Part shown: one piece after another, positions 5,023 to 9,482 of the stretch
How the letters are laid out: each line of letters starts with the position of its first letter
Numbering within the stretch: position 1 is the first letter of the stretch
IMG/VR virus record: IMGVR_UViG_2671180378_000015
Reading direction: 5' to 3' (one strand)
Source of the DNA: a virus
Lineage: Duplodnaviria; Heunggongvirae; Uroviricota; Caudoviricetes
Length of the DNA: 29,797 nucleotides
Notes under the pieces: model-generated
The model's input: only the letters and a program-made list of their open reading frames with translations
What the model was told of the DNA's origin: nothing
The model's database searches: none
Translations under genes and position numbers: made by a program

Positions 5023-5235
5023 TCATGAAAGGTAAACATTGGCAGCTGAAGGGCCACGCAGACCATTTATCCGGCAAAATTCCACGCGTAATCCGGTGGT
5101 AATTTCTTCTGCATCGCGGAGATTGAGCGCTGAAACATGAAGCTGGACATCGATACGACCATCGGATGGGGTGATAAGACCCTTGCCGCTTTTGCCGTCA
5201 AAGGTTTTGACAATTCCTGTCATTTTACGGGACAA
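5023..5235 (-). CDS. cspF: CspF cold-shock-domain protein paralog (70 aa)
   Basis: ORF track [40 protein letters not shown]...; CSD fold signature. Confidence 0.85.
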
Positions 5236-5368: not shown

Positions 5369-5535
5369 GATTGCGTCGGTTTGAAGAACAGACGATATAC
5401 GAAGTAGTTTACTAAAGCAGTTCTCATTTCAGGTGTTATTCACTTATTCCTTCTTTGAGTCTCTCCAATTAAGTACGAAGTCGTTTCTGTTATGCAAACC
5501 ATTTATGCCGAAAGGCTCAAGTTAAGGAATGTAGA

Positions 5536-5751
5536 ATGTCAAATAAAATGACTGGTTTAGTAAAATGGTTTAACGCTGATAAAGGTTTCGGCTTTATTTC
5601 TCCTGTTGATGGTAGTAAAGATGTGTTTGTGCATTTTTCTGCGATTCAGAATGATAATTATCGAACCTTATTTGAAGGTCAAAAGGTTACCTTCTCTATA
5701 GAGAGAGGTGCTAAAGGTCCTGCAGCAGCAAATGTCATCATTACTGATTAA
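5536..5751 (+). CDS. cspB: CspB cold-shock protein (71 aa)
   Basis: ORF track [38 protein letters not shown]...; RNP1-like KGFGFI motif. Confidence 0.9.
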
Positions 5752-6032
5752 AATTCATCGCTCGTCTGTATACGATAACGAAGAAGGCTGATGCCTGAGT
5801 AGAGATACGGACAGAGTAGTGAATATTGGATCTCTTTAATAAAAAGTAAGGAGGTCCAATACATGAAACAATGGCTAGCATATTTGGCAAAATCTTAATC
5901 AGGAAAAGTATGCTAACCATTGTGGTGAAGTGCAGGTTTGCTGCATGAATAGTTTCACAGCAGAAGCTAACTGCTGGCATCGCAAAACAAAGTGCGTAAG
6001 TGGATGACTCCCACAAAAAGCACCACAATCTC

Positions 6033-6114: not shown

Positions 6115-6285
6115 TCAGGCTACAGCTTTAAGATTTGTCTGGAATACTTTGTTGCAATGAGGGCAGATCAAAAGGGCACCTTTTTGTACTCTTGAAAAAC
6201 TGTGTTCTGACTCTTGGGTGCAGTTTGGGCAGGAACATTTAACGAGATAATTACGGCGTGATTTTGAGTCTTTACGTTCTGACAT
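6115..6285 (-). CDS. Small Cys-rich (putative zinc-ribbon) protein, 56 aa; not in ORF track
   Basis: Hand translation of minus strand: MSERKDSKSRRNYLVKCSCPNCTQESEHSFSRVQKGALLICPHCNKVFQTNLKAVA; RBS AGGAAAAgcct before ATG; two Cys clusters CxCxxC ... CxxC. Confidence 0.45.
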   Translation of the reverse strand: MSERKDSKSRRNYLVKCSCPNCTQESEHSFSRVQKGALLICPHCNKVFQTNLKAVA

Positions 6286-8271: not shown

Positions 8272-8422
8272 GGTGTTCTGGTTTGTTACAAATTTATCTG
8301 AAGCAGTCATTGTTATAATTTTATTATTTGTACCTCTTGAGATTTCCTTGTTGGTTTTTCTCTCTGATATTTTTTTTCGGACCATTCTGCCCAAGGGCTA
8401 ATTTCTTCAAAAGGTAATAATT

Positions 8423-8635
8423 ATGTCTAACAAAATGACTGGTTTAGTGAAATGGTTTAACCCTGAAAAAGGTTTTGGTTTCATCACGCCGAAAGATGGC
8501 AGCAAAGATGTGTTTGTCCATTTCTCAGCAATTCAGAGCAACGATTTCAAAACATTAACTGAGAATCAGGAAGTTGAATTTGGTATTGAGAACGGACCTA
8601 AAGGTCCTGCCGCTGTTCATGTAGTGGCGCTTTGA
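8423..8635 (+). CDS. cspI: CspI cold-shock protein (70 aa)
   Basis: ORF track [45 protein letters not shown]... Confidence 0.9.
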
Positions 8636-8834
8636 GGTAGACAATATTACAAACCATATTCACTTTAGATGCCCGTGTTGTCATGGTTCCCAGTATAGAA
8701 CATCATCTTTTGATGTTTCTGACATGAATCCTTTCGGGGCAAAATGTATCTTTTGTAAATCAATGATGATTACATTTGATAATATTTCACAATACTTAAA
8801 TGCCAGCCGTCTGTCGTTGGATTTAAAAAAGTGA
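8625..8834 (+). other. Open frame encoding a second Cys-rich zinc-ribbon-like peptide lacking a canonical start (possible non-canonical start or decayed paralog)
   Basis: Frame reads ...HFRCPCCHGSQYRTSSFDVSDMNPFGAKCIFCKSMMITFDNISQYLNASRLSLDLKK stop 8832-8834; first ATG (8724) lies after the first Cys cluster; strong terminator immediately downstream. Confidence 0.3.
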
Positions 8835-8840
8835 AAATGA

Positions 8841-8864
8841 AGGCTCCTTCGGGAGCTTTTTTGC
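8841..8864 (+). terminator. Rho-independent terminator
   Basis: aggctcc ttcg ggagct followed by tttttt. Confidence 0.65.
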
Positions 8865-8906
8865 TTGGTATCTATTCGATGGATACTCACATACTACGGT
8901 AACATC

Positions 8907-9137
8907 ATGAAAAAAATCATAGTTTTTTTTAACTCTGAACCAGCAGTGGTAGTGCCAGCGATGACTGGAGTTAACACCATCATGCGTGAATATCCAAATG
9001 GCGAAAAAACACACCTTACTGTAATGGCCGCAGGGTTTCCATCTCTGACCGGAGATCATAAAGTCATTTATGTAGCCGCGGATCGACATGTTACTTCAGA
9101 AGAAATTCTGGAAGCAGCAATAAGGCTCTTGAGTTGA
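8907..9137 (+). CDS. Hypothetical small prophage protein (76 aa)
   Basis: ORF track frame 8865-9137; likely start MKKIIVFFNSEPAVVVP at ATG 8907; no recognisable domain. Confidence 0.4.
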   Translation: MKKIIVFFNSEPAVVVPAMTGVNTIMREYPNGEKTHLTVMAAGFPSLTGDHKVIYVAADRHVTSEEILEAAIRLLS

Positions 9138-9305: not shown

Positions 9306-9482
9306 ATGATGAATATTGAAAACTTAAAAACAAAAGCAGAAGCAGATATTTCTGAATATATAACAAAAAAAATTATTGAACTTAAGAAAAAGACCGGGAA
9401 AGAAGTTACCAGTATTCAGTTTACCGCACGGGAAAAAATGACGGGTCTTGAAAGCTATGATGTCAAGATTAATTTAATCTGA
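9306..9482 (+). CDS. gnsB: GnsA/GnsB-family small protein (58 aa); not in ORF track
   Basis: Hand translation MMNIENLKTKAEADISEYITKKIIELKKKTGKEVTSIQFTAREKMTGLESYDVKINLI; RBS AAGAGGAA before ATG; upstream TATAAT box. Confidence 0.7.
   Translation: MMNIENLKTKAEADISEYITKKIIELKKKTGKEVTSIQFTAREKMTGLESYDVKINLI

Follow-up and report, generated by a model that had tools for sequence, protein, structure and literature searches.

An annotated gene behind cspI

An open frame directly behind the cold-shock gene cspI encodes two cysteine knuckles and has no canonical start codon ahead of the first of them, which raises the question of whether it is a gene and, if so, where its translation begins and what ties it to cspI. 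It lies in a segment of an E. coli Qin-type lambdoid prophage (the window, i.e., the whole stretch of 29,797 nucleotides that was analysed) that carries cspF, cspB, and ynfU; the lysis genes essQ (essD), ydfR, rrrQ, and rzpQ; and cspI, ynfQ, ynfR, ynfN, and gnsB. The frame is open from 8625 to 8834, preceded by TAG at 8622–8624 and closed by TGA at 8832–8834. The translation quoted in a previous, sequence-only reading of this DNA is an exact match, and the list of open reading frames bears out two further points made there: no in-frame ATG, GTG, or TTG stands before the first Cys cluster, and the first canonical in-frame start, the ATG at 8724, yields an ORF of 36 aa. In-frame ATT codons are found at 8646 and 8658. 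The features of the locus are compiled in Table 1.

Table 1. Positions of the features at the cspI-ynfQ locus within the window
Feature	Position	Strand	Remarks
cspA-type thermoregulator (5' UTR and cspI coding region)	8277–8662	+	Rfam RF01766, 112.8 bits (gathering 78), E 2.1e-28
cspI CDS	8423–8635	+	70 aa; TGA at 8633–8635; ORF list, RefSeq
Shine-Dalgarno GAGGT of ynfQ	8634–8638	+	overlaps the cspI stop; ends 7 nt before ATT (GAGG: 8 nt)
ynfQ CDS	8646–8834	+	62 aa, YmcF-like, Cys4 zinc-ribbon-like; PF23641, PGAP/RefSeq
ATT initiation codon of ynfQ	8646–8648	+	RefSeq/PGAP start; 80-locus alignment; Pfam profile begins here
First knuckle C9-P-C11-C12 (CPxC)	8670–8681	+	C9, P10, and C12 invariant
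Internal ATG (Met27) of ynfQ	8724–8726	+	very probably not the start; knuckle 1 and the rest of the conserved N-terminal half are encoded upstream of it
Second knuckle C34-I-F-C37 (CxxC)	8745–8756	+	in conserved GAKCIFCK motif; alignments
ynfR	8837–8902	+	21-aa ORF, 2 nt past the ynfQ stop, reads through the hairpin; RefSeq
Intrinsic terminator	8839–8862	+	9-bp stem, UUCG loop, U6 run; fold
ynfN	8907–9137	+	next gene, same orientation
gnsB	9306–9482		after ynfN

We consider it very probable that the frame represents ynfQ, a known protein-coding gene and the copy of chromosomal ymcF found in Qin-type prophages, and that it starts at the AUU at 8646. The gene is not new: it is already annotated with an ATT start in the K-12 reference, and its family has a Pfam entry of its own. 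In K-12 MG1655 (NC_000913.3), ynfQ is b4724 (YP_009518790.1), 189 nt long and located 10 nt past cspI, and a PGAP CDS of strain W2-5 corresponds to window positions 8646–8834. A 501-nt query around the frame matched 2146 complete E. coli records, 1574 of them at ≥99% identity, and all frame-spanning E. coli records among the matches listed annotate a CDS as ynfQ or ymcF, with its product given as "cold shock small protein YmcF" (the PGAP name) or as "cold-shock protein". The protein matches PF23641 (YmcF-like) over its entire length (109.9 bits against a cut-off of 27, E 6.9e-32, residues 1–62 on profile positions 1–62 of 62) and has the YmcF-like motifs FRCPxCHGSQYR and NPxGAKCIFCK with their four cysteines, which are kept in distant members. 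The single NCBIfam match, ECs_2282_CxxC, is sub-threshold (17.8 bits, cut-off 37) and does not amount to membership. We found 132 YnfQ homologues. The family is small and largely enterobacterial, with only 42 clusters (50% identity) at E ≤ 0.001 among 1.84 billion representatives.

YnfQ has been listed among the uncharacterised K-12 genes (PMC11551758). A clash of names can mislead literature searches: Table 1 of VanOrsdel 2018 (PMC6001520) uses "ynfQ" for a different sORF of 37 aa located between ydfJ and ydfK, which is probably the gene later listed at the same coordinate as ynfT.

The K-12 paralogue ymcF (b4723) encodes a protein that is 66% identical to YnfQ. The two genes are organised alike: both encode 62 aa, follow a CspA-family gene by 10 nt (cspG in the case of ymcF), start at ATT, and have a terminator just after the stop codon. 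They differ in setting, as ymcF is chromosomal and followed by ymcE-gnsA, whereas ynfQ is prophage-borne and followed by ynfR-ynfN-gnsB. Within Qin-type prophages ynfQ belongs to the region of the lysis module. It also occurs in active lambdoid phages such as Tritos and 2H10; in Tritos and other active phages, the block cspI-ynfQ-ynfN-gnsB likewise follows the lysis genes.

Comparative evidence for an AUU start

A scan of one genome per species yielded 277 relatives, and 80 loci were kept for comparison. The codon aligned with 8646 is ATT in 60 of these, ATG in 16, and ATC in 4. A RAGG Shine-Dalgarno core lies 7–8 nt upstream of it at 79 of the 80 loci and, where a csp gene adjoins, overlaps the csp stop codon. 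In a DNA alignment of 14 genera, the AGG core and the first two bases of the start codon (AT) are invariant. Klebsiella, Raoultella, Citrobacter sedlakii, and Silvania have ATG in place of ATT at precisely this position, which on comparative grounds is the signature of the true start. The ATT at 8646 had been put forward as one of two possible non-canonical starts; it coincides with the annotated ynfQ start, and an ATG, as looked for in orthologous loci, is present at this codon in 16 of them. The assignment of the ATT start is based on RefSeq annotation and comparative sequence. Our search of the literature on ymcF and ynfQ returned transcriptome lists and small-protein screens and no primary paper that maps the ATT start, and the TetRP paper does not mention the ynfQ locus.

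Translation could alternatively begin at the ATT at 8658 (codon 5) or at the internal ATG and give a shorter product. Both codons are in frame, and some database entries start at or near the internal Met (e.g., P0190 and P0194). Codon 5, however, is ATT at 54 loci, ATC at 14, CTC at 9, and ATA at three; with CTC in Escherichia ymcF, it lacks conservation as a start, and the other ATT suggested earlier thus drops out. The conserved Shine-Dalgarno, 7–8 nt before codon 1, would stand 19–20 nt before codon 5. A start at 8724 would lose the half of the protein with the invariant FRCPxCHGSQYR motif: residues 5–8 (IHFR) and the whole first knuckle, all encoded upstream of the ATG, are invariant or nearly so, and residue 27 is not conserved as Met but is R, K, Q, S, or G in other genera. 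We judge a shorter product very improbable and retain the AUU at 8646 as the predicted start.

RNA structure that hides the Shine-Dalgarno or the start codon was considered and rejected. The predicted fold of 8600–8700 is no more stable than that of shuffled sequences (z −0.42), and a structural switch at the ynfQ start is not supported by it.

Purifying selection on the encoded protein

A frame of 70 codons is by itself not beyond chance, and it is the conservation, as read from the aligned loci, that makes ynfQ real. None of the 80 loci has a stop within the first 44 codons. Variation falls on third positions: among the 80 loci, 19 columns are variable at codon position 1, 17 at position 2, and 42 at position 3 (of 43 each). 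Relative to the window copy, pN is 0.05–0.16 and pS is 0.63–1.0 (saturated), and dN/dS is about 0.04–0.05 where dS can be corrected. We take the frame to be real because it is open at all 80 loci and varies at third positions. Few small proteins of the enterobacterial cold-shock regulon are as constrained as YnfQ and YmcF.

These values bear on the earlier suggestion that the frame is a decaying paralogue, a pseudogene that lost its start codon and is untranslated. The Cys cluster without a canonical start ahead of it would fit such a history, as would the phage records, seven of nine of which leave the YnfQ homologue unannotated or call it hypothetical (including H72–H75, H77, and H79); these omissions are probably due to gene callers that disallow ATT as a start. 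Decay is refuted by the strong purifying selection and by the open frame at all 80 loci across many genera, where frameshifts or stops, named earlier as what would refute the reported frame, were not seen; pN stays low at saturated synonymous sites, position 3 varies in 42 of 43 columns, ATG occurs at the same codon in 16 loci, and RefSeq annotates an intact CDS. We regard a pseudogene as barely conceivable.

Equally implausible is that the region acts mainly as RNA, either as a 3' UTR or terminator element of cspI or as a translated spacer that controls read-through into ynfR-ynfN-gnsB and whose peptide is unimportant. The terminator directly behind ynfQ, the reading of ynfR across it, and the extension of the Rfam cspA model to 8662 agree with a role of this kind; strongly constrained amino acids at saturated synonymous sites are instead the signature of a functional protein, and the start region shows no significant RNA fold.

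A probable second cistron on the cold-shock mRNA

The proposed link with cold-shock genes holds for ynfQ. An intact CspA-family gene lies directly upstream of the ynfQ/ymcF homologue at 52 of the 80 loci, and the distance from the end of csp to the start is 10 nt at 42 loci and 9 nt at seven, with 9–10 nt at all but two of the 52 csp-adjacent loci. The arrangement extends to Dickeya lacustris, in which a csp gene is followed after an 11-nt gap by a YmcF-like gene with an ATT start. As the Rfam cspA match spans 8277–8662, ynfQ is expected to be carried on the cold-regulated cspI mRNA. Published transcriptomes are in line with this arrangement: ynfQ RNA changes in step with cspI and ynfN in RNA-seq (PMC11228462), and ymcF and ynfQ RNA change together with cspG, cspH, and cspI (PMC11728337). 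The SPA-tagged product of the neighbouring ynfR is induced by cold shock (PMC6001520).

We propose that ynfQ is the second cistron of a cold-shock mRNA that would be transcribed from the cspI promoter, carry the thermosensing leader, and in most cases end at the terminator right after ynfQ. Translation would begin at the AUU at 8646, served by the GAGG Shine-Dalgarno that overlaps the UGA of cspI 7–8 nt upstream. Most likely, this cold-induced cspI-ynfQ transcript yields YnfQ, a Cys4 zinc-ribbon-like protein, in small amounts relative to CspI.

The proximity of the two genes also allows for a CspI-YnfQ fusion, produced by +1 frameshifting at the end of cspI (CUU UGA G, 8630–8636). CTT TGA G combines the slippery codon and stop of prfB, a +1 slip there enters the ynfQ frame, which is open from 8625, and at the 42 loci with a 10-nt gap, ynfQ is shifted by +1 against the csp frame. 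The likeness to prfB-type frameshifting is confined to the shared CUU UGA (8630–8635): there is no Shine-Dalgarno-like stimulator 3 nt upstream of the CUU, where the sequence is GTAGTGGCG, and the last codon, the stop, and the gap vary among loci. The corresponding sequence is CTC TAA in ymcF and GTA TAA or CGC TAA in other genera, and the 9-nt gap of Kosakonia alters the frame relation. Independent initiation is favoured by the conserved Shine-Dalgarno and by the 16 loci that have ATG as the start codon. A conserved fusion was rejected, as neither the shift site nor the frame relation is conserved, and we give next to no credence to fusion at the locus in the window.

Start codon choice and csp adjacency

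The start codon follows the presence of the upstream gene. All 52 csp-adjacent loci use ATT or ATC, and all 16 ATG-start loci are without an intact adjacent csp, which is decayed or absent (the ATG group comprises L030, L033–L036, L038, L041, L043, L047, L048, L051, L052, L062, L066, and L083 from Klebsiella/Raoultella, together with L013 and L082). Traces of a csp 3' end, now degenerate, can still be recognised upstream of the ATG in Klebsiella and Raoultella, and in C. sedlakii the upstream csp is truncated. ATT is kept without an adjacent csp in three lineages (Pseudescherichia, Atlantibacter, and one Citrobacter), and the ATG loci behind the association of start codon with csp adjacency amount to about three independent lineages.

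The use of AUU after an intact csp and of AUG after its loss suggests that YmcF/YnfQ synthesis depends on ribosomes delivered by the Csp cistron. Re-initiation or coupling is plausible at ynfQ because its AUU lies 10 nt after a highly translated ORF. Ribosomes that finish the heavily translated cspI would feed the weak AUU, YnfQ synthesis would thereby be tied to CspI at a low ratio, and a strong start codon would be selected once the upstream csp cistron is lost. The pattern is a cheap and testable hypothesis on translational coupling and weak starts.

AUU, a codon at which IF3 discriminates, is also the initiation codon of infC and pcnB in E. coli. Like ynfQ, these genes combine an AUU start with a normal Shine-Dalgarno. 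The weak start is kept across genera in the ynfQ family; at ynfQ it lies 10 nt behind a highly translated ORF, unlike in infC and pcnB, and in lineages without the upstream csp it is replaced by ATG. As at the infC and pcnB starts, YnfQ synthesis may be sensitive to IF3, and YmcF/YnfQ synthesis possibly depends on the level of IF3, which changes in cold shock. Tentatively, and with more doubt than conviction, we raise the idea that the AUU/AUC start could be a conserved regulatory device instead of a tolerated oddity, in which case infC and pcnB would be joined in E. coli by a third class of regulatory AUU starts, one that depends on coupling.

A predicted Cys4 zinc-ribbon-like protein

YnfQ has two knuckles that supply four cysteines, as is characteristic of Cys4 zinc-ribbon and rubredoxin-like proteins, examples of which are the TFIIE-alpha zinc finger and the zinc modules of UvrA. 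Invariant columns of the family include F7, C9, P10, C12, G14, Q16, R18, P29, G31, F36, C37, and K38. The x position of CPxC is occupied by C, A, K, T, H, R, S, Q, or N in distant members, and because this position (C11 here) varies, C9, C12, C34, and C37 probably act as the metal ligands. In the most likely arrangement, C9-P-x-C12 and C34-x-x-C37 jointly bind a single metal ion, zinc, within a compact ribbon- or rubredoxin-like core that would be followed by a C-terminal helix. The AlphaFold2 model (pLDDT 74) has short hairpins and a helix at residues 44–58, and a 2026 review modelled YnfQ with a rubredoxin-like topology (PMC13348028).

A profile search of the PDB with YnfQ gave matches at the level of motifs only (E about 0.06), namely to the zinc fingers of UvrA (CPxCHG) and to Rieske box II (CPCHGSQY). 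FRCPCCHGSQY of YnfQ (residues 7–17, 8664–8696) resembles FKCP-CHGSQY of the cytochrome b6f Rieske subunit; unlike Rieske proteins, YnfQ is without box I (CxHxGC), and the cysteine aligned with the Rieske disulfide Cys varies in distant members. Judged by these alignments, the likeness is a motif resemblance only. The predicted metal site may hold Fe-S or Fe instead of Zn. Our best guess for the function of YnfQ and YmcF is that they assist the cold-shock response as accessory proteins that bind nucleic acids or other proteins.

YnfQ and YnfU share no detectable homology

The frame at 6115–6285 (minus strand) had been described as having the same Cys architecture and as forming a csp-linked pair with ynfQ. 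It is ynfU, which encodes a protein of 56 aa (PF23499, NF038384) with the knuckles CPNC and CPHC. YnfU was found by initiation-site ribosome profiling and is reported to have two CPxC zinc knuckles (Weaver et al., preprint 10.1101/511675); of the proteins considered here, this preprint deals with YnfU only. The architectural likeness stands insofar as each protein has one CPxC and one CxxC knuckle, and both are small, come from the same prophage, and have a csp gene nearby (cspB for ynfU). Homology between them was rejected by BLASTP and profile-profile comparison: BLASTP gave no alignment at E ≤ 100, hhalign of the two family alignments returned a probability of 4.6% over eight columns (the knuckle only), and YnfQ matched neither PF23499 nor NF038384. 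In contrast to ynfQ, ynfU has a canonical ATG and lies on the opposite strand, convergent with cspB, outside a csp operon and not as a downstream cistron of csp. On sequence comparison, the two are not a paralogous pair and have in common only a generic mini-zinc-knuckle architecture, and the postulated pairing falls with it.

Two observations concern the other csp genes of the window. A second Rfam cspA-thermoregulator match (5375–5767, 161.6 bits) covers the leader and coding region of cspB, and cspF (5023–5235, minus strand) seems to use a TTG start codon preceded by an AAGGA Shine-Dalgarno.

Terminator and downstream genes

The frame was said to end 6 nt before a strong terminator, which roughly fits the distance measured from the end of the ynfQ stop at 8834, a gap of 4 nt if the extended stem is counted and of 7 nt if only the G+C core is. 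The hairpin GAAGGCUCC-UUCG-GGAGCUUUU (8839–8860, with the U-run at 8857–8862) has a dG of −14.9 kcal/mol and a z of −2.8. K-12 ymcF has an equivalent hairpin, with the terminator 6 nt after its stop, and a strict search detected a hairpin and T-run after the stop at at least 48 of the 80 loci (45 at 0–9 nt and three at about 30 nt). Stem sequences vary from genus to genus, an indication that csp and ymcF form a conserved bicistronic unit.

The genes follow closely upon one another, with 10 nt between cspI and ynfQ, 2 nt between ynfQ and ynfR, and 4 nt between ynfR and ynfN. K-12 ymcE is, like ynfR, annotated across the terminator, in this case the one after ymcF. More speculatively, translation of ynfQ-ynfR across the hairpin, or antitermination by Csp, could gate read-through into ynfN-gnsB.

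Annotation of ynfQ and its neighbours

Gene callers that accept canonical starts only miss or truncate ynfQ. Several database entries of YnfQ homologues are mis-started, with a length of 70–71 aa (extended into csp) or 39 aa (starting at the internal Met). Assemblies assigned to Veillonella parvula, Mucilaginibacter, and Chryseobacterium contain enterobacterial contigs with ynfQ/ymcF (L005, L055, and L079; identity to E. coli of up to 100%), probably as a result of contamination or mis-binning. The downstream gene ynfN is annotated by PGAP with 76 aa here and in many strains and with 51 aa (156 nt) in the K-12 reference; at a K-12-like locus (L004), tblastn matches only ynfN residues 7–76, which suggests a difference at the 5' end of the gene in K-12.
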